Made by a program: the position numbers and the translations under genes. Under the pieces are notes generated by a model. That model saw only the letters and a list, made by a program, of their open reading frames with translations, made no database searches and was not told the DNA's origin. A stretch of DNA of 64,000 nucleotides from Clostridia bacterium (lineage in GTDB: Bacteria; Bacillota; Clostridia; Oscillospirales; CAG-272), in assembly GCA_017399305.1 (NCBI GenBank), contig JAFQDK010000018.1:2363-66362 (forward strand). The letters run 5' to 3'. Of this stretch, positions 17,500 through 34,781 are shown one piece after another (position 1 is the stretch's first letter; every line of letters begins with the position of its first letter).

Positions 17500-17931
17500 T
17501 CATTCGGGCGCACTTTCCAAAGCCCTGTCCTCTTTTTCGCTTTCGGACAGAAGCCAATACTTAGACTTATCAACCTTGTTACGGCTCGTAACCTCCGCGT
17601 ATCGCTTTTGGATAGCCGCTGATGTTATCAAGTCCTTGCAGAGGAGCGCTTCATCGAATAGCCCTATCTCCCCACAATAGCGGATAATATCAACAACAAG
17701 GTTTTGACGATTCACCCATCTATACCCGATCATGCGAGTTATAACCTGTGCCATGCGTATAGCACTCATTTCGGCATAATATCCCTCTCGGTAAATAGTG
17801 CATAGACTTGCGACAAATACGGTAACGCCAAGAGGACCGTATTTGTCAACCAAATCCATAATTTTCAAATCGTCAAAAAAGTCTACATCAAAAGGAAAAT
17901 AGTCAAGCCCACGTTTAGGCGGTCTTGCCAT
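17500..17931 (-). CDS. DUF4373 (Lin1244/Lin1753-like) replication-organiser N-terminal domain protein
   Basis: MARPPKRGLDYFPFDVDFFDDLKI signature. Confidence 0.6.
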   Translation of the reverse strand: MARPPKRGLDYFPFDVDFFDDLKIMDLVDKYGPLGVTVFVASLCTIYREGYYAEMSAIRMAQVITRMIGYRWVNRQNLVVDIIRYCGEIGLFDEALLCKDLITSAAIQKRYAEVTSRNKVDKSKYWLLSESEKEDRALESAPE

Positions 17932-17943
17932 CTTTAATCCTCC

Positions 17944-18378
17944 TTAAAACGGTAAATCGTCTTCTTCACTTATCGATTCAAACTTCGGTGTAGCTTCAGT
18001 ATTTGAATATGCTTCGGGTACATATGCACTGCCGTTATTGTCGCCTGCATTATCGTCCTTGCCGCCGACAAATCCAACTTCATTTGCAATAACCTCGGTG
18101 ACGTATCTCTTCTCGCCCTTATTATCTGTGTAGGAGCGTGTCTGTATCTCTCCCTCAACAAGAATAGGCTTACCTTTCTTAAAATACTGTGCGACAAATT
18201 CTGCCGTCTTGCGCCATACAACGCAGTTAACAAAATCTGTTGTCTGCGTGCCGTCTTTTCCCCTGTACTTGCGGTTAATAGCAACTGTAAACGATGCTAC
18301 CGATACACCTTCGGGTGTCTGCTTAAGTTCAATATCTTTGGTAATGTTACCGATAAGAATTACTTTGTTAAAAGCCAT
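17944..18378 (-). CDS. ssb: Single-stranded DNA-binding protein
   Basis: MAFNKVILIGNITKD...OB fold, Gly-rich linker, acidic tail ending DDLPF. Confidence 0.9.
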   Translation of the reverse strand: MAFNKVILIGNITKDIELKQTPEGVSVASFTVAINRKYRGKDGTQTTDFVNCVVWRKTAEFVAQYFKKGKPILVEGEIQTRSYTDNKGEKRYVTEVIANEVGFVGGKDDNAGDNNGSAYVPEAYSNTEATPKFESISEEDDLPF

Positions 18379-18589
18379 TGTTATTCTCCAATCTGTATTT
18401 CTTATAATATGTTGTCTCGCCGTATCTATTGATGCCGCTTACGGTCTCTGATGTTATTCGGTGACCTTTTCTTTTAAGGTCGGTTATTCTTGAAGCAAGC
18501 CGCATAATTCCATATTCTTTTATGGCTTCAAGCGAAGTTATGCTACCATAATCTTCAAGATGTCGCATGATTCTTTCACATTGTGTCAT
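18368..18589 (-). CDS. Small winged-helix-like DNA-binding protein
   Basis: 73 aa, LASRITDLKRKGHRI motif. Confidence 0.4.
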   Translation of the reverse strand: MTQCERIMRHLEDYGSITSLEAIKEYGIMRLASRITDLKRKGHRITSETVSGINRYGETTYYKKYRLENNNGF

Positions 18590-18858
18590 AAATAACTCTT
18601 TCTGAATAGTTTTATAAACTCTTCTCTTGTATGCTCACGCTCAAATTTTCGCTGTGCAGCACGTTTTAATTTTTTGTTTGTGTTCTCGTTAAGGTGAACA
18701 GAATTAGGGCTGTACACATGGCAATACGGACACAATAAACAGGTCATGCCATACCGTTCACTTCGTTTGCGCAAGCTGCCTTCAAAAATGTGATGTACGT
18801 GCATAAAACCAACCTTGCCGCATATCACGCATTTTCCCTCAGCCATTACTTCTCCCAC
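18586..18858 (-). CDS. Zinc-finger/HNH-like (NinG/DUF968-like) protein, tentative
   Basis: CVICGK...HHIFEG...CLLCPYCH. Confidence 0.4.
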   Translation of the reverse strand: MGEVMAEGKCVICGKVGFMHVHHIFEGSLRKRSERYGMTCLLCPYCHVYSPNSVHLNENTNKKLKRAAQRKFEREHTREEFIKLFRKSYL

Positions 18859-19349
18859 CTTTCAAGCAGTAGTGCAAGTTCTGCCGGTGTTGCCGTTTCA
18901 ATGTCAAGAGCCTTGCAGTCTTGTACAACAAGGTCGATTAAGCGTGACATTTGCGCTGTATCATAAGTAGAAGAACCGCGATACGCAATCACCGTTGCAC
19001 AACCGGGCAACTTCGATTCTCCGCGTACTGCAACATTCCCAAGGTGCCCTTGCGACCAAGCTTTGCAAAAATCGTCTACGGCTTCTTCTTTCATACAGTA
19101 CACATCTCTAACGCCTACTTCTATTATGTAGTCACGGTATAATTGGGTAGTGCCGGGCAAGTATCTCTTTTCCGCCAACTTGCCGAGCAACACCCAAAAA
19201 TACGCGTTTGCATCAAGACTGCGCTTTTTACGAGATTTGTCTATCGTCATGACATACTCGGTGCTATCGTCAAGACTCTGGAAAAATTGCCCGAGCCTTG
19301 ACATAAGACCGAATGCATCAGATTTCTTAAAACGAAATTCTTGCTTCAT
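18846..19349 (-). CDS. Recombination-module protein (NinB/Orf-like, tentative)
   Basis: 167 aa next to Erf; RSLDANAYFWVLLGKLAEK motif. Confidence 0.35.
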   Translation of the reverse strand: MKQEFRFKKSDAFGLMSRLGQFFQSLDDSTEYVMTIDKSRKKRSLDANAYFWVLLGKLAEKRYLPGTTQLYRDYIIEVGVRDVYCMKEEAVDDFCKAWSQGHLGNVAVRGESKLPGCATVIAYRGSSTYDTAQMSRLIDLVVQDCKALDIETATPAELALLLERWEK

Positions 19350-20041
19350 ATCGCTTTAAGTACCTTGTCGAAATCAGTACATTTTATCTCAGCGGTTTTG
19401 TTTACGCCGAACATTTTGAGAAAATCGCCGTACTTAGCAATGTTATCACCTGCGACTTGTCCGTTTTTTGCTTCCCAAGCATCCATAATTTGTTTCTGTT
19501 GTGCAACCGTCAATGTATTCTTAACAGGCGGTGCTTCTACTTTTGGAACTTGAGTTTCTGCTTCTGCGGTATTCTTGCATTTATAATTGTTTTCTTCGCT
19601 TGCGGATTGGTCAGGGTCGTCCCCTGTTGAGATTTTATATGCTTTCATAAGCGCATACTTATCTGCATACGTCATTGCCTTACCGCTTCCTTTGTCTTGC
19701 GAATCAATACCCTCGGCAAAGGTTGTTGTTTCAATATATTCTTCAGGCTTTTCAACGTTTACAAAGCGATAAATTGTTTCTATTCTCGTCATGAAGATTG
19801 TTTTTTTGGTTGTTTGACCGTTGTATGTGCTTTCACTTTCAAGCATATTGCTTTCAAGTACCTTGCGACTTACAGGATAACTGTAAACACCATGCTCGGT
19901 TTCAAGGGGCTTTACCGCATCAAGAATATCCCTTTCCGACACGGCTTTGTATGAAGTTGTTTTTGTCTGTTGCACCGTCAAGTTCTTTGCAACCGTCTGT
20001 AATTCTGCGGTTATAGCCGCCATTTTTTCAAATATGTTCAT
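19346..20041 (-). CDS. erf: ERF-family single-strand annealing protein
   Basis: ORF 19346-20074; ATG at 20041 (MNIFEKMAAITAELQTV) has GAGGAG RBS; ERF-like N-terminus. Confidence 0.7.
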   Translation of the reverse strand: MNIFEKMAAITAELQTVAKNLTVQQTKTTSYKAVSERDILDAVKPLETEHGVYSYPVSRKVLESNMLESESTYNGQTTKKTIFMTRIETIYRFVNVEKPEEYIETTTFAEGIDSQDKGSGKAMTYADKYALMKAYKISTGDDPDQSASEENNYKCKNTAEAETQVPKVEAPPVKNTLTVAQQKQIMDAWEAKNGQVAGDNIAKYGDFLKMFGVNKTAEIKCTDFDKVLKAI

Positions 20042-20255
20042 CTTTATTCTCCTCAAACTCAAGCGGGCAATCATCCGCTATAATCTCAATCGAATACACA
20101 ACATTACCTGTCAATCTGCAAAAATGTCGGCTGTTGGCTTCGTCAGCCCTTAAATGCGGACACCATTTGCACTTAACATCATCTTCAGGAAAATGAACTG
20201 GGATGTGCGCTATTGCAGTTGTGTACCAAGTAATACCTTTATCAAATTTACCCAT
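20028..20255 (-). CDS. Small Cys-rich hypothetical protein
   Basis: 75-aa ORF. Confidence 0.35.
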   Translation of the reverse strand: MGKFDKGITWYTTAIAHIPVHFPEDDVKCKWCPHLRADEANSRHFCRLTGNVVYSIEIIADDCPLEFEENKDEHI

Positions 20256-20502
20256 GACACATAGCCTCTCTTATCCAAGCTTCTTTCCTGTCGAGCGCTT
20301 CAAGTAAATTTGCTCTATCTTCTTCAAGATGTTTTAAGTCTGCTAATAGCTTTTCCATCTTAGTTATATCTGCATCGCAGAAGTCGCACTCCGCTTCGTT
20401 TTGCACAAGTAGCCAGGTCTCTTTTATTTCCTGTTCTTTCTGCTCAAGTAAATATTCAATCGATGGTTCAGCCTCTTTGCGTTCAAAAAACGACATTTTC
20501 AT
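20248..20502 (-). CDS. Small acidic coiled-coil hypothetical protein
   Basis: 84-aa ORF. Confidence 0.35.
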   Translation of the reverse strand: MKMSFFERKEAEPSIEYLLEQKEQEIKETWLLVQNEAECDFCDADITKMEKLLADLKHLEEDRANLLEALDRKEAWIREAMCHG

Positions 20503-21085
20503 TCTCCTTTATGTTTAGATACCACTCTATAAAGTCTCGCGCATACTCAAATGACCATGCAACAATGCATCTGTGTCCCTGCGCTCTCAATTTACAGAGC
20601 CATTGATTTTGTTCTACCGTAGGCTTGCCGCCATCGGCTTTCATTTCTATGTATAGGCTGTGCCACTTTCCACGAGCCACAGGTAAGCAAAGGTCGGGCA
20701 CACCTCTTTTAAGTCCGAGAGCTTTAAGTATTGCGCCTGCAATTTTTGACCGCTTGCCCTCATTGGGGACATGATATATAAGGTCAAGCTCAGGGTATTT
20801 GCCTTTCATGGCCTCACACCAATCAATCAGGGCTCTTTGGTCAGCAGTTTCGTCAATACAGGATTTGTACCCCTCATTACCATATAAAGGCTTGCTTTTT
20901 TCTTTGGTTTGTGATATACTTGATTTGTATCTATCAGCGGGTGTTTTCTCACCCCTTGCCTCTGCGGTTGCCGCCGCAGGGGCTTTTTCTTTTTCTGTCC
21001 TCGCTTTTATCCGGAAGCCCACGCACATGCACCGCTCTCCCGGATCAAGCGTTGCTCCGCACTCAGGGCAAAAATAATTGTGCAA
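20483..21085 (-). CDS. VRR-NUC domain nuclease with N-terminal zinc ribbon
   Basis: CPECG..CMC then VPDLCLPVARGKWHSLYIEMK...QNQWLCKLRAQGH (PD-(D/E)xK VRR-NUC pattern). Confidence 0.75.
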   Translation of the reverse strand: MHNYFCPECGATLDPGERCMCVGFRIKARTEKEKAPAAATAEARGEKTPADRYKSSISQTKEKSKPLYGNEGYKSCIDETADQRALIDWCEAMKGKYPELDLIYHVPNEGKRSKIAGAILKALGLKRGVPDLCLPVARGKWHSLYIEMKADGGKPTVEQNQWLCKLRAQGHRCIVAWSFEYARDFIEWYLNIKENENVVF

Positions 21086-21089
21086 TTCA

Positions 21090-22118
21090 TCATCTCCTTA
21101 ATATTTGATTTATTTTCGTGTCCATAGCCATACCCAAGTTATAGCAATTACCGTGCGATATGTGATTTTTCCATGCTCCGTAAGAAGTATCAAACTTTTC
21201 TATAGGCAATTTACCATTCACAACAAGCTTTGCCATTCGCAAATACTTTTTCTGTGCATTGCGCTTGTTTTGGTTCTTCAACTTGCGTATTACCTTGCCG
21301 CCGCTTGCAACATAGGTATGAAAACCGAGATAATTAACACCGCTTTTGAATGGGAATATCTGTGTTTTGCCATTGAGTTCAAGACCAAGTGTTATAAGAA
21401 ACTCCGTTATCGCCTCAAGGCAATATTTTAAATATTCCTTGCTCGGATGCATTAGATAGAAATCGTCCATGTATCTGCCGTAATACTCAATACCGAGTTC
21501 ACGGACGATAAGCTTGTCCATGCCATCAAGATATAGCAAAGCAAATCCTTGATTTATCTGATTACCGAGCGGTATTCCTTTGCCCTCGGTACTGTCAATA
21601 AACAAATTACAGAGCCAGCATATATCAGGATCATATGAGAAGTAGTATTCAACAATATCCTTTAATTGCTCGTGCGATATATTGTAGAAAAACTTTAATA
21701 TATCACACTTTAAGATGTAGCCGTTGCAACCGTATTTTCTGTAAAAAGCTTTCATATGAAAACTCAAACGGTCAAGTGCAAATAATGTTCCTTTACCTTT
21801 TTGCCCTGCGGCATTGTCATATAGGAAAATTCTCTGCATCTTTGGAAGTAGCACATTATCACATAGACTATGCTGCACGACCTTATCTTTGAAAGATGTC
21901 GTCTGTATAATACGCTCTTTAGGCTCGTATACTTTGAACTCGTTATACTTTGATATTCTGTAAGTTCTGTCGCTAAGTTGCGAAATCAACCGATTAATTG
22001 CATCTAATGCCATAGCACCGAATTTAGCAGAACTCTTTTTATAGCCTTTACCGCTTTTTGCTTTGCGGTAAGCTCTATACATGTTTTCAAAGTCTATTAC
22101 TTTCTCAAAATCGGTCAT
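21090..22118 (-). CDS. DGR-type reverse transcriptase
   Basis: YMDD box (GRYMDDFYLMH), GIPLGNQINQ in place of DGR-typical [LI]GxxxSQ, N-terminus MTDFEKVIDFENMYRAYRKAKSGK; I start at ATG 22118 because the track ORF (to 22295) reads through the TR. Confidence 0.85.
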   Translation of the reverse strand: MTDFEKVIDFENMYRAYRKAKSGKGYKKSSAKFGAMALDAINRLISQLSDRTYRISKYNEFKVYEPKERIIQTTSFKDKVVQHSLCDNVLLPKMQRIFLYDNAAGQKGKGTLFALDRLSFHMKAFYRKYGCNGYILKCDILKFFYNISHEQLKDIVEYYFSYDPDICWLCNLFIDSTEGKGIPLGNQINQGFALLYLDGMDKLIVRELGIEYYGRYMDDFYLMHPSKEYLKYCLEAITEFLITLGLELNGKTQIFPFKSGVNYLGFHTYVASGGKVIRKLKNQNKRNAQKKYLRMAKLVVNGKLPIEKFDTSYGAWKNHISHGNCYNLGMAMDTKINQILRR

Positions 22119-22222
22119 GCAGTTAAGTCCTTTTTGTTTATCCTTTTCGGAAAGGTCGCGCATTCTTTTGATGTGGAGTTCTGATTTGGGCTTATGCCTA
22201 CTCTGTCTGACTATCCACCAGT

Positions 22223-22286
22223 ACGGACGCACGCCGTTGTTGTTGTTACTGCTCATGTTGTTGATGTTGCCATCCGGCGAAACGCA
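22223..22286 (-). repeat. DGR template repeat (TR), 64 nt
   Basis: Minus strand TGCGTTTCGCCG GAT GGC AAC ATC AAC AAC ATG AGC AGT AAC AAC AAC AAC GGCGTGCGTCCGT; 19 A, seven AAC codons, A-free flanks shared with both VRs. Confidence 0.8.
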
Positions 22287-22311
22287 AAAACACAACGCGC
22301 AACCTATAAGT

Positions 22312-22689
22312 TTATTTTTGTTCTTTTGTTCTCCATGCGATAGCCATATACTTCACATCAGAAACCAACTTAGACCAGTAAGCAGCAGATTTTGGTGCTA
22401 ACGATACAACTTCCATTGAAAGCTCAATGAAAAACAATAATTCATCGCAATATGTAATTGCCTTGGTTATCGTCTCGCACCGTAAATACTTATTTGTTGC
22501 ATTATTTATCCTGTTAGCTTCAAGCAATAATTCATCTATCTCGATGCTCTTGATTTGAATTTTGTTACACAGTGAAACTCGGTATTTTTTAGGGTATCTA
22601 TCGCTATTGGAAGTTAATTTAAATGAATGTACGGCAAGTTCTTTTGCTTTTATAACAACTTTTAATTCGTTGTCTTTTTCTTTAGTCAT
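22312..22689 (-). CDS. avd: Avd-like accessory variability determinant (four-helix-bundle protein)
   Basis: About 125 aa, basic, helical; ATG at 22689 overlaps target-1 stop (ATGACTAA); sits between target and TR as in canonical DGRs. Confidence 0.75.
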   Translation of the reverse strand: MTKEKDNELKVVIKAKELAVHSFKLTSNSDRYPKKYRVSLCNKIQIKSIEIDELLLEANRINNATNKYLRCETITKAITYCDELLFFIELSMEVVSLAPKSAAYWSKLVSDVKYMAIAWRTKEQK

Positions 22690-23209
22690 CACAAGATACA
22701 AAGATAGAAGATACAAAGTTCAAAAACGGACGCACGCCGCGGCAGCCGTAACTGACGTAGAAATCGTAGATGTCGCCGGACGGCGAAACGCAAAGGCACC
22801 AATTATCACCGAAATATTCATCTGTGCTATCAGGCGTAGCAAGCCACCAATATTTATCAAGCTTATGCTTTTCAAACAATGGGCGGTTTTTGCGGTAAAA
22901 ATCAAGTGTGGGTATGCTGATTCTTGATGTCATAACACCATACTTAGCCGAACCATCTAAAGAAAGCAAATCAGTTTCAAACTCAAGCACGTTTTCAGCA
23001 CCTACAATATTTTCAATCTCCGGCAATACTTCTTCCGTGAGACGCTTCATAATATCGCTACTTCTGAAATCGTTATTATCGCCGAAACGAGAATCGAAAA
23101 GTCTATCCTTGCATACTGCAATAACTCTGCCGTTTTCTTCGCCAAAATTGATAAATTCATATTTGCCAAGGTTGAAAGTTCCATCGGCATTTACTTTGAT
23201 TTTTTCCAT
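22682..23209 (-). CDS. DGR target protein 1 (C-terminal variable region, CLec/DUF6273-like WWLATP...GVRPF)
   Basis: 175 aa; C-terminus ..WWLATPDSTDEYFGDNWCLCVSPSGDIYDFYVSYGCRGVRPF carries VR1. Confidence 0.8.
   Translation of the reverse strand: MEKIKVNADGTFNLGKYEFINFGEENGRVIAVCKDRLFDSRFGDNNDFRSSDIMKRLTEEVLPEIENIVGAENVLEFETDLLSLDGSAKYGVMTSRISIPTLDFYRKNRPLFEKHKLDKYWWLATPDSTDEYFGDNWCLCVSPSGDIYDFYVSYGCRGVRPFLNFVSSIFVSCDD
22726..22792 (-). repeat. DGR variable repeat VR1, 67 nt
   Basis: Same A-free flanks as TR; 3' 28 nt differ from TR only at TR adenines (7 of 9 A changed, 0 of 19 non-A). Confidence 0.75.
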
Positions 23210-23223
23210 GTTACTTCTCCTTT

Positions 23224-23829
23224 TTAAGATACAAAGATATCAGAGTCTAAGATACAAAACGGACGCACGCCCGTGGAGTCGTTGAAACTGCCGTAGCAAT
23301 TGAGGACGTCGCCGGCCGGCGAAACGCATTTGACCGTTTCGGAATAGCCATGCTTAGGAGTGCTGAACGGCGTTGCAAGCCACCACCAATCCTTTACTTT
23401 GTACTTATCAAGGATTTCTACATACTTGCGGTAAAGATTGCATGTGAGCAACGATACACGCGCCATAGTTGAACCGTAGCACTTGAGTCCATCATCCGCG
23501 GTTAAGTCTACACTATGCATACAGATGTTTTCTTCTCCGACAATTTCAGCAATCTCATCGGCGAACTTATCAAGGCGATTCTTTACATCGCTTGACTTAT
23601 AATCGTTGCTTTTGCCGAATTCCATTATTTCAAGAAAATCGCGCATCAGCAAATATGTATTGCCAGATTGATGCTCAAGCACAATAAATTCATACTCGCC
23701 GATTTCGACTGTTTCGCCTACGGTTGCATCACCGAGTTTCACCTGCGGAACAAATTGGCTTTTGATACTGTCAATCTGTTCTTTTGTTAACGGTATTTTC
23801 TTTCCGTTGATACATAAATAGTTTTTCAT
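23224..23829 (-). CDS. DGR target protein 2 (paralog of target 1)
   Basis: 201 aa; ..WWWLATPFSTPKHGYSETVKCVSPAGDVLNCYGSFNDSTGVRPF carries VR2; alignable with target 1 over most of its length. Confidence 0.8.
   Translation of the reverse strand: MKNYLCINGKKIPLTKEQIDSIKSQFVPQVKLGDATVGETVEIGEYEFIVLEHQSGNTYLLMRDFLEIMEFGKSNDYKSSDVKNRLDKFADEIAEIVGEENICMHSVDLTADDGLKCYGSTMARVSLLTCNLYRKYVEILDKYKVKDWWWLATPFSTPKHGYSETVKCVSPAGDVLNCYGSFNDSTGVRPFCILDSDIFVS
23259..23328 (-). repeat. DGR variable repeat VR2, 70 nt
   Basis: Flanks TGCGTTTCGCCG and GGCGTGCGTCCGT identical to TR; centre two codons longer than TR. Confidence 0.7.
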
Positions 23830-23840
23830 GTTATATCTCC

Positions 23841-24059
23841 TTATAAATAATAGTTTCTATAGATATTCTTTCTATGTTGCTTATTCTTGTAATAAACCGT
23901 CTGTATATCAAACAGCCAGTTGCAAGCTCTACGCTTTATGGCACCTAACACACGGGGGATATTTTCCCACTCGTCTGCAATGGTCCCGATAATACATAAA
24001 ACCACCGCAAACAATGCGATAAAGCCTACGCCCCAAAGCCATGTTTCAAAGAATGTCAA
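23841..24059 (-). CDS. Small membrane protein
   Basis: 72 aa, one TM helix (WLWGVGFIALFAVVLCIIGTI). Confidence 0.4.
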   Translation of the reverse strand: MTFFETWLWGVGFIALFAVVLCIIGTIADEWENIPRVLGAIKRRACNWLFDIQTVYYKNKQHRKNIYRNYYL

Positions 24060-24391
24060 AACAAACCACTCTCCTTGTCTATATATCCAGGATACGGATT
24101 GTTTGCTTCCGCATACCGTACCGATGTCTTGTACGCAAGCTGAGGAGCATTACACACAAAGAATAAATGAGTCGGTATGCAAAAGCCTCTGTTGCCACCC
24201 GCCGTTTTTTGCCACCCAAAGCCAAACGGACAACTGCCTGTGCTGATGCTCTCCCTAAGACTTTCAGGAGCCATGCCGAGAAACCTTGCCGCCTCTGCAG
24301 CAGGTATCGTTATAGGATACTTTTCACATAGCTCCATAAGCTCACGGAATCGCTTTTCAACACACTCGGGCATTCTAAAGATTTCTGCCAT
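24056..24391 (-). CDS. Early-operon hypothetical protein (possible HTH)
   Basis: 111-aa ORF, ITIPAAEAARFLGMAPESLRESI HTH-like. Confidence 0.4.
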   Translation of the reverse strand: MAEIFRMPECVEKRFRELMELCEKYPITIPAAEAARFLGMAPESLRESISTGSCPFGFGWQKTAGGNRGFCIPTHLFFVCNAPQLAYKTSVRYAEANNPYPGYIDKESGLF

Positions 24392-24473
24392 GATTATCCC
24401 TCCTTATAAATTTTGTTTTCCTTGCTTTCTAAAAGCACAACTGCTATACTTGAAAAGAAGGAAGTGAATTTAA

Positions 24474-24848
24474 ATGAAAACTAAAATTAAAGTAACTCAG
24501 CGAAATGTGAATAAAGTTCTTGATTATCTAAGTACCTACCCTTATTCCAAAGGCAAAATGATGTTCGTTGATGAAAAATTCTATAGCGGGCTACGTTTGA
24601 GCAAAGTTAAAGTCAATCAAACACTTAATGCGTTGCAAGAATTAAATATTATTGAAATAACACCACCGGTTTATAATAAACCTGCTACTATTTACCTTGC
24701 CGCCGGAGCTTTTTCTTATCGATTACTCAATCGTCAAAGCTTAACTCGCTTTTTGATACCTACTATTATTTCTGCCATAGCTCTGCTTAAAGCATTTGAT
24801 AGAGAACTGCTATTATTAGCCGAATTGATAGTAGACCTGCTAAAATAA
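24474..24848 (+). CDS. Plus-strand insert gene in the early operon (wHTH-like N-terminus plus C-terminal hydrophobic segment)
   Basis: 124-aa ORF with GAAGGAAG RBS, opposite orientation to all neighbours. Confidence 0.4.
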   Translation: MKTKIKVTQRNVNKVLDYLSTYPYSKGKMMFVDEKFYSGLRLSKVKVNQTLNALQELNIIEITPPVYNKPATIYLAAGAFSYRLLNRQSLTRFLIPTIISAIALLKAFDRELLLLAELIVDLLK

Positions 24849-24924
24849 TCAACGGCACCACAAAATCAGAAACCGATGTTATTACAATTCGCTGTTCTGC
24901 AATTTCTTTCTTTTTTTGTCTCAT
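24787..24924 (-). CDS. Possible 45-aa membrane peptide coupled to cro
   Basis: ATG overlaps cro stop (TAATG); MRQKKKEIAEQRIVITSVSDFVVPLIILAGLLSIRLIIAVLYQML; overlaps 3' end of 24474-24848 antisense. Confidence 0.25.
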   Translation of the reverse strand: MRQKKKEIAEQRIVITSVSDFVVPLIILAGLLSIRLIIAVLYQML

Positions 24925-25124
24925 TACAACTCCTTTGTTATATTAAGAATTTCGCATATAGCATCTACTATAACAGAGTTCTCATATTTGCCCGTGAGCG
25001 TCTTGTGCATATACGAGGTGTCAAAATACAGCCCCGTCTTGGCTTTTATCTGCTCAATAAGCCATGCTTGGTTCTTGTCCATGTCGATAAGAGCCTTTTT
25101 TACTTTCTTGCCAAATTCAGACAA
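24924..25124 (-). CDS. cro: Cro-like small HTH regulator
   Basis: Track ORF 24924-25142 starts at a TTG without SD; internal TTG at 25124 is 8 nt after AAAGGAG; divergent partner of cI-like gene. Confidence 0.55.
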   Translation of the reverse strand: MSEFGKKVKKALIDMDKNQAWLIEQIKAKTGLYFDTSYMHKTLTGKYENSVIVDAICEILNITKEL

Positions 25125-25150
25125 AATATCTTCTCCTTTCAATATTTGTA

Positions 25151-25179
25151 TTGACTTTTACGCAAAAGTGTAATAAAAT
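25151..25179 (+). promoter_or_regulatory. Sigma-70-type promoter directed toward cI-like gene
   Basis: TTGACT (25151-25156) - 17 nt - TAAAAT (25174-25179). Confidence 0.5.
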
Positions 25180-25198
25180 GGTGTTGTCCAGACATCGC

Positions 25199-25278
25199 AC
25201 TATTACAGTTTTGTGTAACCCTATGGCTACATATTACTACTTATTTCTGTAATAGTCAAGCGAAAATATTACAGTTTT
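25199..25278. promoter_or_regulatory. Operator repeats of the lysis/lysogeny switch
   Basis: TATTACAGTTTT at 25201-25212 and 25267-25278; inverted copy CTGTAATAGT 25247-25256 (reverse complement of ACTATTACAG 25199-25208). Confidence 0.6.
25231..25259 (-). promoter_or_regulatory. Sigma-70-type promoter directed toward cro-like gene
   Basis: Minus strand TTGACT (25259-25254) - 17 nt - TAATAT (25236-25231); operator copy lies in spacer/-35. Confidence 0.5.
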
Positions 25279-25318
25279 CAGTATTTCAGCGTTTTAGACA
25301 ATTGTGGGGGTAAGTAAT

Positions 25319-25675
25319 ATGTCAAAGTTGTACAATAACATTTTGTCGTTATGCGAGAATAAAGGAATTACGGGTTATCGCATGTGCAAAGAAATCGGAA
25401 TACAGCCAAGCATTTTAACAGATTTGAAAATGGGAAGAAAAGAAGGACTTTCTTCAAAAAATGCGGACAAAATCGCTCGTTACTTTGGCGTGTCGGTTGG
25501 ATATCTACTGGGAACAGACTATAGCGAAGTTGACGAAACAAAAAAATCCCCGTCCGTATCGGACGAGGATATAAAATTCGCATTATTTGGCGGCGAAGAT
25601 GAAATCACAGACGAGATGTGGCAGGCCGTAAAAGAATATGCAGAATTTATTAAAGATAAGCACGGAAAGAAATAG
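25319..25675 (+). CDS. XRE-family cI/ImmR-like repressor
   Basis: HTH GITGYRMCKEIGIQPSILTDLKMGRK; ATG 25319 follows GGGGG RBS (track start 25304 is GTG). Confidence 0.75.
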   Translation: MSKLYNNILSLCENKGITGYRMCKEIGIQPSILTDLKMGRKEGLSSKNADKIARYFGVSVGYLLGTDYSEVDETKKSPSVSDEDIKFALFGGEDEITDEMWQAVKEYAEFIKDKHGKK

Positions 25676-25684
25676 GGTGTAATA

Positions 25685-26476
25685 ATGGATACTTACATTG
25701 CATATTTTGATGAATCCGGCGACGATGGAATTTCAACGGCATCAAGCTCTTATTTCGTTCTTACAAGCATGTATATGAGCGCCGAATCTTGGCAAAGCAA
25801 CTACAACAAAATCAAAGCGTTCCGTGCTTCCTTGAAAAAATCACACGGATTTCACGCTTCCGAAGAAATGCATACAAAGCATTTACTATCCAACAAAGAA
25901 CCGTACCGCAAATATGGATGGACAAACCAACAACGGCAAGATATTATTAAATATTTTACTCTTTGTTTAGCAGAGTTGGATGTCAAATTTATAAACACTA
26001 TTATCGACAAAACAAAAATTACAACCTCTGACTATCATGTTTTGGAAAACGCTTTGAAATATAATATTCAGCGAATCGAGAACGATAGTGCCGGAAAATG
26101 GAATTATATTATCATTACCGATCAGGGAAGAATTGCACCGATGCGTAAAACCGCTCGAGCAATCCGTGCATACAATCCTATTCAATCTAAATACTCGCTT
26201 GATTTTAAAAACGAGCCTATAAATAATTTGATTGAAGACATTCTTGAAAAAGATTCAAAGGAATCATATTTTGTGCAGATGTGTGATTTTGTATCATATA
26301 TAGTACATTTATACTATAGGACACAATACAAAAAACAACCTCTCCCAAATAGAGTGGGACAGGTTGTTGACGAAAAATTTATTGGGCGAGTCATGGCAAC
26401 ATTAAAGAACTCAGGAAAACTGAATACAAAAGCAAGCAGTAGAAGCACCTACGGGCTTGTCATATACCCGAGATAA
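25685..26476 (+). CDS. DUF3800-family protein
   Basis: N-terminus YIAYFDESGDDG is the DUF3800 signature; 263 aa; 9 nt after repressor stop. Confidence 0.6.
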   Translation: MDTYIAYFDESGDDGISTASSSYFVLTSMYMSAESWQSNYNKIKAFRASLKKSHGFHASEEMHTKHLLSNKEPYRKYGWTNQQRQDIIKYFTLCLAELDVKFINTIIDKTKITTSDYHVLENALKYNIQRIENDSAGKWNYIIITDQGRIAPMRKTARAIRAYNPIQSKYSLDFKNEPINNLIEDILEKDSKESYFVQMCDFVSYIVHLYYRTQYKKQPLPNRVGQVVDEKFIGRVMATLKNSGKLNTKASSRSTYGLVIYPR

Positions 26477-26628
26477 AAGAAAACACCACCTACGAGGCAT
26501 TCGCCCTTTCAGTGGTTCAATGTAATTATACACTATTATTTACGATTTGTCAACACCATTTCACGAAAAATCTTTCGTGTTTCTGTACGATTTATTGTAC
26601 ACCCTTTGCTGTAAAATAATATCCGGAG

Positions 26629-27045
26629 GTGAATCACATGAATGTATTGAAACTTTATGACATTGCAAAAAAGCACGACATCATGGTGAACACCCGAGAT
26701 ATTCCGCCGCCATCAATGGCAATAGAGGTATGCGGTATTAAAGGTATCGCGCTCCGAAAGGACCTCACAAAAGCAGAGGAACGGTCCTATCTCTCACACG
26801 AACTCGGACACCATATAAAAGGTGCACTCTACAGCAAAGAAACACCTTGTTTCACCCGAGGGCAATGCGAACATAAAGCGAACAAGTGGGCAATACATAA
26901 ACTTATTCCGTTTCGCTCACTCTATGCAGCATTTCGCAAAGGTTATGTCGAAGTCTGGCAACTTGCCGAATACTTCGATGTAACAGAAGATTTTATATTA
27001 AAAACAATAGAGATATACAAGCAGGAAGGCAAATTGCCGATATAG
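26629..27045 (+). CDS. immA: ImmA/IrrE-family zinc metalloprotease
   Basis: HEXXH motif SHELGHHIKG; about 138 aa; lysogeny module context. Confidence 0.75.
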   Translation: MNHMNVLKLYDIAKKHDIMVNTRDIPPPSMAIEVCGIKGIALRKDLTKAEERSYLSHELGHHIKGALYSKETPCFTRGQCEHKANKWAIHKLIPFRSLYAAFRKGYVEVWQLAEYFDVTEDFILKTIEIYKQEGKLPI

Positions 27046-27069
27046 GAACATATTTAACGATGAGGTAAA

Positions 27070-27369
27070 TTGAAAATGATGGATTTTTTAATCCTTATGC
27101 TCATAACTGCAATATTATTATTTTTTGTTTTAGTAGGAATAGAATACGCAAGCAGTAAATCAAAAAGAACACGTATATTCCTCGTTTATTCAATTATTCT
27201 TGCTTTTAGCGCTTTGAACGCTTGGGTTATAACAGTAAATCAAAATAAAATCCCCATTGATTCCGTAGAAAAAGCATGGAACGATTATACAAAAGAATGT
27301 CGTGAACAACATATTTCTTGGAACGAGTTAACTTTCCCAGAATGGCTTGGCTTTAAAGCGGCAGAATAA
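27070..27369 (+). CDS. Small membrane protein
   Basis: 99 aa, two TM helices. Confidence 0.45.
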   Translation: MKMMDFLILMLITAILLFFVLVGIEYASSKSKRTRIFLVYSIILAFSALNAWVITVNQNKIPIDSVEKAWNDYTKECREQHISWNELTFPEWLGFKAAE

Positions 27370-27461
27370 CCAAAAAAATCAATTATTCTCACAAATAATT
27401 GTACTTACACTTATAATCTTTACAGCAATAGGTTTATAAGAATAACAGAAAGGAGCGTACT

Positions 27462-28583
27462 ATGCCACGCAAAAAAGCCACAAAGCGAGCCGACGGCAGA
27501 TATGTTTCAACACTTGTAGTCGGAACTGATGCAAACGGCAAGCTTGAGCGCAAATACTTCTACTCAAACAAATCGCAGACAGATGCAAACAACAAGCGTG
27601 ATGCGTATAAGGCCGAGCAGACCGCAAAAGGGCTCCTCGGTACAGCTCCCGGAGAAGCAAAAAAGGTAAAGCTTGAAACATGGGCGAGAAAATGGCTTGA
27701 AACGAAATCGGGCAAGGTAAAAGAATCAACTTTCGATACATCATACCGCCGCCCAACAGAAAGGTATATCATACCCAAACTCGGTAACCGATACATCGCC
27801 GACATCAAACCTATAGAAATTGATGCCTTTTTCACTAAACTCGGCGAAAACTATTCGCAGACTGTACTGCAGAAAACAAAGATATGTCTTTCTGCCATAT
27901 ACGATAGTGCAATAGATAATAACATATGCTATAAAAACCCTTGCAAAAATGTTGAAATAAGTAGCAAAAAGAAAAAAGGCGATAAACGGACCTATACCGA
28001 AGAACAAGTCAAAGATATCCTTGCTTTTGCAGATACCGATATGTACGGCATATATATTCGTTTACTCCTCGAACTCGGTCTTCGCTGTTCTGAACTTTGC
28101 GGCCTTAAATGGTCCGATTTCGACCTTAACAAGCGAACCGTAAACATAGAGCGAGCCGCAACTGATAATAACGGGTTAACCGTTGTTGATGTACCAAAAA
28201 GTAAAACAAGCATTCGCAGGCTTCCCTTTTCAACGGCATTATTAAACGCACTAAAGCAAATCCCCGATATAAACACCGATAAATATATTGTAGAGTCAAC
28301 CAAGACACCTAATACCCCTGTAAACCCCAAAAATTTCGCTTCTAAGCGATATAAAACTTTTTGGAACAGATACCTTGAAACAATGTCCGAAAGCGAACAG
28401 AAGACATTCCCGCTGCTGTCACCGCATGAATTAAGACATACCTGCGGCACTCTTATGTATAACCGTTCCAAAAACATCTATGCTGTATCAAAATACCTTG
28501 GTCATGCAACAGTTGATATTACATCACGATTATATGTCCACAACGATATAGATACCCTAAGAGAAAGCCTCGGAATTGAGTAA
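27462..28583 (+). CDS. int: Tyrosine recombinase (phage integrase)
   Basis: GLRCSELCGLKW (Arg box), HELRHTCGT, LGHATVDITSRLYVH (catalytic Tyr region). Confidence 0.9.
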   Translation: MPRKKATKRADGRYVSTLVVGTDANGKLERKYFYSNKSQTDANNKRDAYKAEQTAKGLLGTAPGEAKKVKLETWARKWLETKSGKVKESTFDTSYRRPTERYIIPKLGNRYIADIKPIEIDAFFTKLGENYSQTVLQKTKICLSAIYDSAIDNNICYKNPCKNVEISSKKKKGDKRTYTEEQVKDILAFADTDMYGIYIRLLLELGLRCSELCGLKWSDFDLNKRTVNIERAATDNNGLTVVDVPKSKTSIRRLPFSTALLNALKQIPDINTDKYIVESTKTPNTPVNPKNFASKRYKTFWNRYLETMSESEQKTFPLLSPHELRHTCGTLMYNRSKNIYAVSKYLGHATVDITSRLYVHNDIDTLRESLGIE

Positions 28584-28654
28584 AAAAACATATCCCTTTG
28601 TGGTCAAAATGTTGTCATACATCTCGCAAACCCTTTATTTACAAGGCTTCGTTT

Positions 28655-32781: not shown

Positions 32782-33720
32782 ATGAAAAAGTATATATATA
32801 TCTGCGTTTCTGCCGCACTTTTAGTTGCGCTTGCGTCATGCGGCGGTGAAACAAAAACACCTACTACAACCGATATAACTACAACAGAAATGCCGGAAAT
32901 AATTGAGCCTATTGTTGTTACTACCTCAGCACCAACCACAGAAATAACAACAGAAACTACCCCTGTTGAAACCACAACCGAAACTACCACCGTGACTACT
33001 ACTGTGACTACCGCCGAGGCGACAACAACTGAAACTACCACCGTGACAACCGCTACTACTCCCGAAACTACTGTGACTACCGCACAGACAACGACCGCAA
33101 CAACTACCAAAGAACCTGAGGTAACCTACAGTGCTCCTGTCGCATCTGTACTCCCGGGTGAATATACATACGGCGGTGCGCCTACAATAGAAACAATCGA
33201 CGGTTTTACTTATGTCAACGGTATTCTCATTGCAAACAAGACCTACTCCATGCCTGATACATTTGACCCGGGTTATCTCAATCCCGATGCGTACGCCGCG
33301 TTCGAGCAGATGAAATCTGCTGCCGCAAATGACGGCATCACACTTAAAATAATCTCGGGCTACCGCTCATATTCGCATCAGACAAGAACATACAACCGCT
33401 ATGTTTCAAGAGACGGTCAGGCAGCTGCAGACAGATACTCTGCACGCCCAGGTCACTCCGAACATCAGACAGGGCTTGCCATGGATATAAACTCGCTTGA
33501 GCAGAGCTTTGGCGAAACACCTGAAGGAATCTGGTTGGCAGAGCACTGCGCTGAATACGGCTTTATCATAAGATATCCTAAGGAAAAAGAAGTAGAAACA
33601 GGATTTATGTATGAGCCATGGCATATCCGCTATCTCGGAAAAGATATTGCCGCTGCTGTAAAAGGAAGCGGTCTTTGTCTTGAAGAATATCTCGGCATTA
33701 CATCCGTTTATCAGAATTGA
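32782..33720 (+). CDS. VanY/M15-family D-Ala-D-Ala carboxypeptidase lipoprotein with Thr-rich linker
   Basis: Lipobox LASCGG; about 85-aa Thr/Glu/Val linker; SGYRSY, GHSEHQTGLAMD, EPWHIRYLG metal-site motifs. Confidence 0.8.
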   Translation: MKKYIYICVSAALLVALASCGGETKTPTTTDITTTEMPEIIEPIVVTTSAPTTEITTETTPVETTTETTTVTTTVTTAEATTTETTTVTTATTPETTVTTAQTTTATTTKEPEVTYSAPVASVLPGEYTYGGAPTIETIDGFTYVNGILIANKTYSMPDTFDPGYLNPDAYAAFEQMKSAAANDGITLKIISGYRSYSHQTRTYNRYVSRDGQAAADRYSARPGHSEHQTGLAMDINSLEQSFGETPEGIWLAEHCAEYGFIIRYPKEKEVETGFMYEPWHIRYLGKDIAAAVKGSGLCLEEYLGITSVYQN

Positions 33721-33731
33721 AAGGAGAAGCC

Positions 33732-34781
33732 ATGTCAAATAGCGTTCTTGCCGCAATGAGCGGCGGCGTTGACTCATCAGCGGCGGCGCTGATGTTGAAG
33801 AATGGCGGCTATGACGTAAGCGGCATGACACTAAGACTTTGGTCTGCGTGCGATACACCGCTATACAAGCTTCAAAGTGAACTTGATGCAAAAAGCGTCT
33901 GCGATACGCTTGGAATTCCTTTTTACGTTTGCGACTATCGCAAGGAGTTTTGTGACATTGTAATCGCAAACTTTATAGACGCATATGAGCGCGGCGAAAC
34001 GCCCAATCCATGCGTTATATGCAACAAGAATGTAAAGTTTGAATTCATGCTTCGCGAGGCTGACCGCCTTGGTATAGAAAGAATCGCAACAGGTCACTAT
34101 GCCAAGGTTGAACGCTCAGGCGACAGATATATAATACGAAAAGGCGCTGACGATAAAAAGGATCAAAGCTATATGTTAGCCATGCTCACGCAAGATCAAC
34201 TTTCGCGTGTGCTATTCCCTCTCGGCTCGCTGACAAAAAACGAAATTAGAGAAATTGCAGAGTCAAGCGGTTTTTCTGTTGCGCATAAAAAAGACAGCCA
34301 GGACATATGTTTTATTCCTGACGGTGATTATGTCCGCTTTATTGAAGAACAAACAAAAAAGACTTATCCCTACGGCGACTTTGTGAGCGCTGACGGAAGC
34401 ATTCTCGGCAAGCACAAGGGGCTTATCCGATACACCACGGGACAAAGAAAAGGCCTTGGACTTGCATTGCCTGCACCGATGTATGTTCTCGAAAAGGATA
34501 TCGAGGGCAACCGCGTTATCCTTGGCACAAACGAGCAACTGTTTTCACACGAATGTACCGTTTGCGATGTAAACGCTATTGCAACATCTTCGTTCGATGC
34601 ACCGATGCGCGCCGACGTTAAAGTTCGCTACAGCCACAGCGCCGCCGGCGCTTGGTTATATCCAAGCGATGACGGCTGTGTTAAAGTTGTTTTTGACGAG
34701 CCTCAACGCGCAATAACACGCGGACAGACCGCCGCTTTCTATGACGGAGATATTCTCCTTGGCGGAGGTAAGATAAAATGA
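33732..34781 (+). CDS. mnmA: tRNA 2-thiouridylase MnmA
   Basis: PP-loop AMSGGVDSS; ATG 33732 follows AAGGAG (track start 33717 is TTG). Confidence 0.9.
   Translation: MSNSVLAAMSGGVDSSAAALMLKNGGYDVSGMTLRLWSACDTPLYKLQSELDAKSVCDTLGIPFYVCDYRKEFCDIVIANFIDAYERGETPNPCVICNKNVKFEFMLREADRLGIERIATGHYAKVERSGDRYIIRKGADDKKDQSYMLAMLTQDQLSRVLFPLGSLTKNEIREIAESSGFSVAHKKDSQDICFIPDGDYVRFIEEQTKKTYPYGDFVSADGSILGKHKGLIRYTTGQRKGLGLALPAPMYVLEKDIEGNRVILGTNEQLFSHECTVCDVNAIATSSFDAPMRADVKVRYSHSAAGAWLYPSDDGCVKVVFDEPQRAITRGQTAAFYDGDILLGGGKIK

Follow-up and report, generated by a model that had tools for sequence, protein, structure and literature searches.

Canonical DGRs have a TR and VRs of equal length that differ only at TR adenines. 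A DGR carried by a Clostridia prophage departs from both rules, and the question that it raises is whether its VRs are copies of its present TR at all. The analysis concerns a 64-kb stretch of contig JAFQDK010000018.1, which is called the window throughout.

The DGR Cassette and Its Prophage Setting

The locus is a genuine DGR cassette. It is arranged on the minus strand as two small target genes, Avd, the TR, a 104-nt spacer and an intact reverse transcriptase (RT). The cassette is housed by an integrated Clostridia prophage, recognised by portal, terminase and integrase genes that are followed by host genes. Its genes and spacer are as follows.

23224..23829, minus strand: target gene 2 (201 aa, DUF6273-like; ORF listing), with VR2 near the C-terminus
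22682..23209, minus strand: target gene 1 (175 aa, a paralogue of target 2; ORF listing), with VR1 near the C-terminus
22312..22689, minus strand: Avd accessory protein (125 aa; PHROG 3206 'Avd protein of DGR', 1.2e-15)
22119..22222, minus strand: spacer from TR to RT, conserved across the family
21090..22118, minus strand: reverse transcriptase (342 aa, YMDD motif; PHROG 1423, 1e-102; Pfam RVT_1, 7e-14)

Target gene 2 matches PHROG 9958 with 7e-35 (981 homologues found) and Pfam DUF6273 with 6.4e-5, just under the curated cut-off; target gene 1 matches PHROG 9958 with 2.6e-31. VR2 and VR1 end 35 and 44 nt, respectively, before the stop codons of their target ORFs. The AF2 model of the target has a pLDDT of 79 overall, but below 50 in the VR loop (residues 156–184). 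Compared with the PDB, this model gave the T. ramosa IgA peptidase 9qa6 as the top match (probability 0.90, TMq 0.47), with none at E ≤ 0.001, and a profile search against the PDB returned 9qa6 again (E = 0.053).

The first 8 nt of the Avd gene are shared with the end of target gene 1, and the matches of Avd to NCBIfam DivGenRetAVD (3e-6) and Pfam bAvd (0.0035, weak) are both below the curated cut-offs. Between the TR and the start of the RT lie 104 nt. The RT has 2330 homologues at E ≤ 1e-100, and its best NCBIfam match is a group II intron RT, below the cut-off of that family. All columns that are invariant in 41 homologues are retained in the RT, and dN/dS against the sister phage is 0.09 for the RT and 0.08 for Avd. 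Both proteins are under purifying selection and are not decaying. The spacer segment 22153–22161 (GCGCGACCT) pairs with 22297–22305 (AGGTTGCGC) upstream of the TR. Spacer conservation and covariation are visible in the sequences of relatives, and the identity between window and sister is 0.92–1.00 there.

Mismatch between the TR and the Two VRs

The 64-kb window contains three copies, and no more, of both the 12-nt 5' anchor TGCGTTTCGCCG and the 13-nt 3' anchor GGCGTGCGTCCGT. They are all on the minus strand and in matching order, and are exact in the TR and both VRs. The repeats that they delimit and the elements next to them are given below.

22223..22286, minus strand: TR, 64 nt, 13 core codons (GAT GGC AAC ATC AAC AAC ATG AGC AGT AAC AAC AAC AAC)
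22726..22792, minus strand: VR1, 67 nt, 14 core codons (TCC GGC GAC ATC TAC GAT TTC TAC GTC AGT TAC GGC TGC CGC)
22691..22725, minus strand: conserved element 3' of VR1, TTTTGAACTTTGTATCTTCTATCTTTGTATCTT
23259..23328, minus strand: VR2, 70 nt, 15 core codons (GCC GGC GAC GTC CTC AAT TGC TAC GGC AGT TTC AAC GAC TCC ACG)
23224..23258, minus strand: conserved element directly 3' of VR2, TTTTGTATCTTAGACTCTGATATCTTTGTATCTT plus stop, a candidate target-recognition sequence

The repeats so delimited bear out the original prediction that TR, VR1 and VR2 are out of register, with unequal lengths of 64, 67 and 70 nt (13, 14 and 15 codons). Every codon difference that it named is present: GAT in the TR against TCC and GCC, ATG AGC against TAC GTC and TAC GGC, the additional TTC or TGC, and the extra ACG of VR2. 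Its hand alignment also withstood checking, as an equal-length TR/VR alignment with A-only differences was ruled out by an A-tolerant gapped local alignment together with an exhaustive in-frame (codon-aware) search. The former has 8–9 gap columns and 1–2 non-A mismatches per VR. The latter, from which the minimum mismatch counts per VR are taken, cannot go below 5 non-A mismatches and 1 codon indel in VR1, or below 3 non-A mismatches and 2 codon indels in VR2.

The non-A mismatches are all located 5' of the AGT codon common to the TR and the VRs. From AGT to the 3' anchor, VR1 has 0 non-A and 7 A-type differences, and VR2 has 0 non-A differences once its extra ACG codon is set aside. The differences are therefore restricted to TR adenines in the 3' third of both VRs, but not over the repeats as a whole. 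The non-A discordances common to both VRs are xCC at codon 1, xAT at codon 6 and TxC TAC GxC before AGT.

Beyond GGCGTGCGTCCGT, which is the same in the three copies, the sequence splits into ACTGGTGG in the TR and TTTTGTATC and TTTTTGAAC in the VRs, so that the division into IMH and IMH* is present; the 3' flank of the TR reads ACTGG..., not the VR-type TTTT.... A downstream TR/VR split of this IMH/IMH*-like kind is seen across the family too. Downstream of the VRs lies a conserved non-palindromic 33-nt element that is AT-rich, and family-wide TTGTATC is found within 20 nt after the VR in 56 of 76 distinct flanks. DNA folding after the VRs revealed no stable hairpin or cruciform (−4.9 and −1.9 kcal/mol; z of −0.28 and +1.05 against shuffles).

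Norms in Related Phages

Family loci were collected from IMG/VR (L012–L091) and ENA/Logan (L092–L103), each with two DUF6273-like targets and with RT identities of 53–92%; the relatives provided 121 TR-VR pairs and 75 parsed TRs. Their gene order, anchors, spacer and post-VR element are the same as in the window, and the TR-spacer-RT arrangement was found in every examined relative with enough upstream sequence. The window TR had been noted to be about half as long as the 134-nt TR of BPP-1, but a TR of 64 nt is not unusual: all 75 parsed family TRs have 13–15 core codons, and according to Wu et al. (2018, PMC5758913; Nucleic Acids Res 46:11) the mutagenic region of the TR in DGRs spans 30–100 bp.

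Whole-codon differences are normal in this family: codons are added to and removed from AAC tracts in TRs, and also in VRs under an unchanged TR. About 15% of family pairs (about 18 of 121) have a length mismatch, with indels of ±3 or ±6 nt inside AAC tracts, and the relatives L074 and L080 (RT 99.9% identical at the nucleotide level) have identical TRs and VRs of different length. Slippage on the AAC tract, which was among the earlier suggestions, is thus supported as a trait of the family, but for the length component only: the non-A differences are common to both VRs, and slippage therefore cannot explain them. Unique family pairs have 0 non-A mismatches in 92 cases and 1 in 25, i.e., at most one in 117 of the 121, and the family RT is faithful at non-A positions. 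The window is the sole family case needing several gaps plus non-A mismatches.

Relatives with RTs at least 97% identical and with TRs identical or nearly so have VRs that differ at 10–17 of 33 positions; near-identical relatives sharing the same VRs also occur (e.g., L012–L014 and L034/L035). In the window phage, TR, VR1 and VR2 are base-for-base the same wherever present in the 10 loci recovered through the Avd protein (L002–L011, L002 being the window's own contig), with zero differences across those containing VRs. The exact target proteins were found on 12 (target 1) and 11 contigs, the 90% cluster of target 1 has no other member, and no VR variants were found in the 90% target-protein clusters. 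Ongoing diversification was accordingly not seen for the window phage in assembled contigs and protein clusters, whereas it was seen in relatives. The contigs with identical VRs are 99.2–100% identical and come from about two related ruminant-gut datasets; as they may represent one clonal lysogen, the invariance of the VRs is weak evidence.

Which Partner Has Changed

The comparison with related phages that had been proposed for finding the ancestral TR turned out to be productive. In the nearest outgroups (L096, L097, L101 and L102), the TRs number 15 codons; the eighth is TAC and the tenth AGT, and they read ...AAC AAC AAC TAC AAC AGT AAC AAC.... The outgroup VRs recovered (both for L101, a single one for L097 and for L102) are of TR length, with core differences at A positions. 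Window VR2 is in register with the 15-codon outgroup TRs, without gaps and codon for codon (L101, L102), whereas the window TR is not. Both window VRs retain the TAC and AGT landmarks in register, while the window TR lacks TAC and is two codons shorter than the outgroup TRs; this shows the TR to be the derived partner, the one that changed. Since the non-A discordances recur in two independent VRs, and separate copying errors would not fall on the same codons, the template was a different one at the time of writing. Of the four possibilities that the original prediction had offered without deciding between them, a decaying DGR with a mutated or shortened TR is therefore supported as regards the lost TAC and the two missing codons, but not as regards the proteins, given their low dN/dS and retained invariant columns.

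The 3' anchor of the sister and of L096, L097 and L101 is GGCGTTCGCCCGT. GGCGTGCGTCCGT is specific to the window and sits in the TR and both VRs, which shows that homing has operated in the window lineage. The identity of window and sister is 0.77 at the TR against 0.92–1.00 in the flanks, and divergence per site across the family is 0.153 in the TR core against 0.090 in the spacer. The TR core is a local divergence hot spot.

We consider it probable that the VRs are outdated copies and that the TR changed after they were last written in full. An earlier TR with 14–15 core codons and the clade-typical form, xCC GGC AAC ATC AAC AAT AAC TAC AAC AGT (AAC)4, would have written both VRs in full. 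The TR core would then have been altered in its 5' two-thirds, losing 1–2 codons including TAC and gaining GAT and ATG AGC, while the anchors and the 3' AGT(AAC)4 part would have stayed unchanged. With the core altered since writing, the template from which the VRs were copied would be gone.

By the rules of BPP-1 nothing bars the present TR from homing: its identity with the VRs covers 12 nt on the 5' side and 13 GC-rich nt on the 3' side, and the downstream elements are intact. The absence of rewritten VRs therefore needs an extra assumption: the element may be silent in the lysogen, the change may be recent, or the products may be selected against. We infer the order of events, as well as an element that is currently silent or, in place of this, new products that are selected against. 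Against outdated VRs stands the size and clustering of the TR change, at least 5–6 substitutions plus codon loss in about 30 nt, which leave the anchors and the 3' third untouched. No simple series of mutations that leads from the ancestral to the present TR was found. In addition, the A-only 3' third would be explained equally well by partial homing.

Alternative Explanations

Under partial homing the DGR is active, but rewriting is confined to the 3' third of each VR, between AGT and the 3' anchor: the cDNA would enter at the GC-rich 3' anchor and be resolved internally, the old 5' two-thirds and the VR's own length being kept. We regard this as unlikely, if with a modest chance of being true. 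The A-only differences between AGT and the anchor (those of VR2 without the extra ACG) and the lineage-specific 3' anchor common to the TR and both VRs agree with it, and BPP-1 shows cryptic internal 5' integration when the 5' end of its VR is truncated. However, 5' cDNA integration in BPP-1 needs at least 8 bp of identity, and the longest internal TR/VR identity here is 4–5 nt (CAGT, ACATC), while full-length cDNA should be captured at the 5' anchor, the 12 nt of which are intact. Moreover, the 3' third is invariant among the recovered contigs, it offers few informative non-A positions (four C besides the G and T of AGT), and the extra ACG of VR2 is left unexplained. That only the 3' part is rewritten, another possibility in the original prediction, is thus compatible with the data but not required by them. 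A version in which the element is still active, gaining and losing whole codons by AAC slippage and importing only the 3' third of the template, with resolution at less than 8 bp of homology, seems quite unlikely; if true, each target would keep its own length and its older, selected 5' scaffold with a continually rewritten tip. All differences could also have arisen from the present TR in single retrohoming events, by RT slippage on the AAC tract together with non-A misincorporation. Wu et al. describe a single target with as many as 11 non-A-to-N differences, as well as patterns that vary between the targets of one DGR, and slippage under an unchanged TR is supported in the family. We nevertheless hold such events to be very unlikely, as both VRs show the same non-A discordances, which agree with the ancestral TR landmarks, 117 of 121 family pairs have no more than one non-A mismatch, and the inserted codon lies outside the AAC tracts of the present TR.

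Writing of the VRs in trans, by a second TR in the host genome or by that of a co-resident prophage, is in our view distinctly improbable. The sister phage (RT 92% aa identity) is in the same sample as the window, the ends of contigs L005, L006 and L011 switch to sister sequence, and the DGR components of BPP-1 act in trans; cross-recognition is plausible because all family members have the same post-VR element. However, a scan of both strands of the 64-kb window with each VR and TR-style scoring picked out only the known three repeats, and the anchor-to-anchor pattern gave 0 matches in IMG/VR and 0 in GTDB representative genomes, so that the better-matched TR that had been suggested as a possibility was found in none of these. 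With 7 and 6 non-A mismatches the sister TR is a poorer fit, and its 3' anchor differs from that of the window VRs, the anchors of which are identical to those of the cis TR. As direct donors of the window VRs, sister and outgroup TRs were rejected with 4–10 non-A mismatches. An assembly artefact, i.e., a TR or VR that is a chimera of two co-occurring related phages, is extremely unlikely: chimeric-looking joins do exist in the dataset (the ends of L005, L006 and L011; L094), but several loci among L002–L011 span all three repeats with the same sequence, and three kinds of assembly agree (ENA scaffolds, MEGAHIT k141 contigs and a Logan contig).

Other routes to a changed TR were considered and rejected. 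A swap of the whole Avd-TR-RT module is unlikely, as the sliding identity profile is a narrow dip at the TR core between flanks of 92–100% identity, which speaks against block replacement; dS is 0.66 for avd and 0.46 for the RT, somewhat above that of the targets (about 0.3). Self-mutagenesis of the TR, with A-to-N footprints, was discarded because related TR cores are not enriched for changes involving A (178 against 248; A content 0.48). The odd TR core AACAACATGAGCAGTAACAAC had 0 matches in IMG/VR, and its two metagenome matches are unrelated chance ones without anchors; with no real matches elsewhere, there is no donor for a TR imported by recombination. The TR-end plus spacer pattern gave 0 matches in JGI metagenomes and one distant relative, L095, in IMG/VR. 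Annotated phage records yielded one weak match only.

Comparison with Known DGRs and Significance

The cassette resembles the DGR of Bordetella phage BPP-1 (mtd, avd, TR, brt) in being phage-borne, in the order of target, avd, TR and RT, in the VR at the 3' end of the target ORF, in a TR rich in AAC codons, and in an A-free GC-rich segment that is the same in TR and VR and is followed by diverging sequence (IMH vs. IMH*). It differs in having two small tandem targets (175 and 201 aa) in an early/recombination module in place of a tail-fibre gene, a TR of 64 vs. 134 nt, a TR and VRs that are out of register, and, after the VRs, the AT-rich element in place of a GC hairpin. In the related Clostridia/rumen and gut phage DGRs, in contrast, about 85% of TR-VR pairs are of equal length and nearly all are A-only; the window is the family outlier for non-A mismatches and shows no VR variation, whereas near-identical relatives carry different VRs.

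The original prediction was right that the locus departs from canonical DGRs, but such departures are already catalogued: Wu et al. (2018, PMC5758913) report that TR and VR differ in length in 7% of DGRs and at non-A positions in 23%. The strict A-only rule is broken by 35% of the curated DGRs as well; the mismatch weakens the 'canonical' status of the locus, not its membership among DGRs. Like the non-canonical pairs of that study, the window has length differences in multiples of 3 beside AAC repeats and non-A-to-N differences, and the two targets of one DGR differ in pattern. Unlike them, it combines indels and non-A differences in both targets, and the non-A differences are common to the targets and would trace to an older template, not to RT error.

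Although real, the mismatch is an ordinary irregularity in a known system, of a kind already documented in DGRs. The finding is mainly a caution and a small resource, and it leaves the current picture of DGR function unchanged. DGR finders that require an ungapped A-only TR-VR alignment would miss or mis-score this cassette, as well as about 15% of TR-VR pairs in this large gut/rumen phage family. Near-identical phage pairs with identical TRs and unequal VR lengths support the existing proposal of Wu et al. (2018, PMC5758913) that the DGR RT slips on AAC repeats of the template, which implies that DGRs vary loop length besides sequence. VRs can also preserve a record of an earlier template, from which the evolution of a TR may be reconstructed.

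Mismatch between the Template and Variable Repeats

The diversity-generating retroelement (DGR) of the window is a real one, and its template repeat (TR) and two variable repeats (VR1 and VR2, in target genes 1 and 2) form non-canonical, out-of-register pairs of a kind that earlier publications have described. Two A-free anchors, TGCGTTTCGCCG and GGCGTGCGTCCGT, occur in exactly three copies each, in matching order, and bound the TR (64 nt, 13 core codons), VR1 (67 nt, 14) and VR2 (70 nt, 15). The original prediction reported out-of-register repeats with non-adenine mismatches; every codon difference it listed was found in the sequence, and anchors, alignments and identical repeats in further loci confirm its description. 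A-tolerant gapped alignment revealed no equal-length solution with A-only differences. By exhaustive in-frame search, VR1 differs from the TR by at least five non-A mismatches and one codon indel, and VR2 by at least three non-A mismatches and two codon indels. In this search all non-A mismatches lie 5' of an AGT codon common to TR and VRs; only A-type differences occur between AGT and the 3' anchor. TR, VR1 and VR2 are unchanged wherever present in 10 further loci recovered via the accessory protein Avd. The mismatch is thus no assembly error, an artefact being excluded by the same repeats in independent assemblies. The 64-nt TR had also seemed unusually short, which did not hold up: this length is normal in the phage family and within the published range.

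The Cassette and Its Prophage

The cassette runs on the minus strand in the order target gene 2, target gene 1, Avd, TR, spacer, reverse transcriptase (RT), VRR-NUC nuclease gene.

Features of the cassette and its surroundings
23829-23224, minus: target gene 2 (201 aa; PHROG 9958; weak DUF6273 match)
23209-22682, minus: target gene 1 (175 aa; paralogue of target 2; PHROG 9958)
22689-22312, minus: Avd (125 aa; PHROG 3206, 'Avd protein of DGR', at 1e-15)
22286-22223, minus: TR (64 nt)
between TR and RT, minus: spacer (104 nt)
22118-21090, minus: RT (342 aa; PHROG 1423 at 1e-102; Pfam RVT_1)
after RT, last in order, minus: VRR-NUC nuclease gene
7004-9004: portal gene (prophage marker)
9508-10857: terminase gene (prophage marker)
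27462-28583: integrase gene (prophage marker)
33717-34781: tRNA methyltransferase, a host gene beyond the integrase, as is a P-type ATPase

The surroundings are those of a prophage, with portal, terminase and integrase genes followed by host genes; the ENA contig XIEF21-1_SAMN15829899 scaffold_224 includes the window sequence, and NCBI assigns the target proteins to a Clostridia bacterium MAG. The DGR is located inside the early/recombination/lysogeny module (17900-28600), its neighbours being VRR-NUC, ERF, SSB, HTH regulators, DUF3800 and the integrase (27462-28583). Genes for tail or receptor-binding proteins are not among its neighbours, and both targets are very small, at 175 and 201 aa. 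Over 20483-23829, dS against the sister phage L092 is uneven along the cassette (targets about 0.27-0.34, RT 0.46, avd 0.66, VRR-NUC 1.17), which hints at a mosaic history.

The Template Repeat as the Derived Partner

In L092, whose RT is 92% identical in amino acids, the TR has 14 codons; its VR1, also of 14, shows A-only differences, and its VR2, of 15, is likewise A-only except for one extra codon within an (AAC)3 tract. The TRs of the next outgroups (L096, L097, L101 and L102/L103) have 15 codons, TCC GGC TAC ATC AAC AAC AAC TAC AAC AGT AAC AAC AAx AGx AxC, and their VRs, where recovered, have the same length as their own TRs and differ in the core at A positions. Both VRs of the window carry GGC, xTC, TAC (codon 8) and AGT (codon 10) in the outgroup-TR register, and VR2 aligns with the 15-codon TRs gaplessly. 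With two codons fewer and no TAC, the window TR reads AAC AAC ATG AGC AGT instead. A mutation or deletion in the TR, one of several options in the original prediction, agrees with this loss beside VRs that keep the landmarks; the comparison with relatives that it proposed yielded, in the 15-codon outgroup TRs, the register of both VRs.

VR1 and VR2 have non-A discordances in common (xCC at codon 1, xAT at codon 6 and TxC TAC GxC), and the family RT seldom errs at non-A positions (121 TR-VR pairs). Because independent copying errors would not coincide and such errors are rare, the pattern is most simply read as both VRs having been written from an earlier TR, whose core was altered later. Before the change, the TR would have read approximately xCC GGC AAC ATC AAC AAT AAC TAC AAC AGT (AAC)4. 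New in this comparison is that the derived partner is the TR, not the VRs.

The TR seems to have changed locally, not through the swap of a module: window-sister identity is 0.77 at the TR (22223-22286 vs. L092 6545-6620) and 0.92-1.00 in the flanks. Family-wide, differences per site reach 0.153 in TR cores vs. 0.090 in the spacer, with no excess of A-site changes found in the TR-core divergence; TR cores outpace their flanks in evolution. The window-specific 3' anchor GGCGTGCGTCCGT occurs in all three repeats of the window, while the sister and L096/L097/L101 have GGCGTTCGCCCGT, a pattern indicating that homing did operate in the window lineage after its split from the sister.

Rewriting of only the 3' part of the VRs would fit the A-only 3' third and the common 3' anchor; it seems unlikely, however, as TR and VRs have no internal homology of at least 8 bp and no 3' variation was seen among the recovered contigs. 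That a trans-acting TR in an unsampled part of the genome wrote the VRs is quite improbable: no second, better-matched TR was found in the window, IMG/VR or GTDB representatives, and the TR of the co-occurring sister fits the VRs worse. That the present TR gave rise to the differences in one step of non-canonical mutagenesis is very doubtful, being contradicted by the ancestral-looking non-A states common to both VRs.

Length Variation in the Phage Family

At E<=1e-100, 2330 homologues of the RT were found, and the same cassette occurs in 80 IMG/VR loci and several ENA/Logan loci. TR and VR are equally long in 97 of 121 unique pairs; non-A mismatches number zero in 92 pairs and one in 25. In about 18 pairs (15%), a length difference of ±3 or ±6 nt falls within AAC tracts, and the remaining differences are A-only. 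The TR core comprises 13 codons in 58 cases, 14 in 14 and 15 in 3, and the VR loop of target-2 orthologues (n=108) spans 12-16 residues, with one exception of 8.

Phage pairs with identical TRs bear differing VRs, some of unlike length. The proximal VR measures 36 vs. 33 nt in L074/L080 (RT genes 99.9% identical), and VRs likewise differ by one codon in L053/L054 (RT 98.8%) and L059/L069 (RT 98.1%). Length variants therefore arise without TR change, as expected from the AAC-tract slippage suggested in the original prediction; codon-unit variation of this kind is common in the family. The L061 TR has (AAC)6 where its siblings have (AAC)4, and both L061 VRs have five codons there; together with the identical-TR pairs, this means that AAC tract length is unstable in TRs and VRs alike. 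Wu et al. (2018, Nucleic Acids Res 46:11, PMC5758913) found that TR and VR differ in length in 7% of DGRs, usually by a multiple of 3, that 74% of the indels adjoin AAC, and that 23% of DGRs have non-A differences. The family variants provide natural support for their slippage idea.

Present Activity and Flanking Elements

The dN/dS values against the sister are 0.09 for RT and 0.08 for Avd, and the RT retains all invariant columns of a 41-sequence alignment. The DGR has kept intact its TR/VR identities of 12 and 13 nt and the conserved element that follows the VRs. Homing in the Bordetella phage BPP-1 needs 5' homology of at least 8 bp; judged by BPP-1 rules, the TR in its present form could home. 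No difference in VR1 or VR2 was seen among the recovered contigs of the window phage, and the 90% protein clusters of the targets contain no VR variants. As evidence this invariance is weak, since the contigs, with 99.2-100% identity, may all come from a single clonal lysogen. The TR may have changed recently, with the element silent in the lysogen or new products selected against.

An AT-rich element of ~33 nt, TTTTGTATCTTAAAATCTAATATCTTTGTATC, is conserved 3' of the VRs (window 23224-23258 and 22691-22725, minus; loci L012-L095) and doubles as coding sequence for the conserved C-terminal tail FCILNSNIFVS. BPP-1 has a GC hairpin after its VR, whereas no hairpin is predicted in this element, which may replace it as the family's target-recognition signal. 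A long-range helix of AGGTTGCGC with GCGCGACCT (22297-22305 pairing with 22153-22161, minus) encloses the TR together with most of the spacer. Its covariation is visible in the relatives L012 (AGGTTGTGCG/CGCACAACCT) and L023 (AGGTTATAC/GTATAACCT), and the helix probably belongs to the DGR RNA scaffold.

The window phage and its sister (RT 92% identical) co-occur in one sample. The locus L094 (5360-5779), from the window's sample, combines a sister backbone with a VR2 block of the window type, 3' anchor included, and the ends of three window-phage loci (L005, L006, L011) turn sister-type in spacer (22124-22194) and RT (21413-21471). L094 and these contig-end switches reflect either real recombination or chimeric assembly.

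The AF2 model of target 2 (23224-23829) is confident save for the VR loop (residues 156-184, pLDDT below 50). It gave no C-type lectin match; the sole recurring, weak match is the Thomasclavelia ramosa IgA peptidase domain (PDB 9qa6; profile E=0.053, Foldseek probability 0.90, TMq 0.47).
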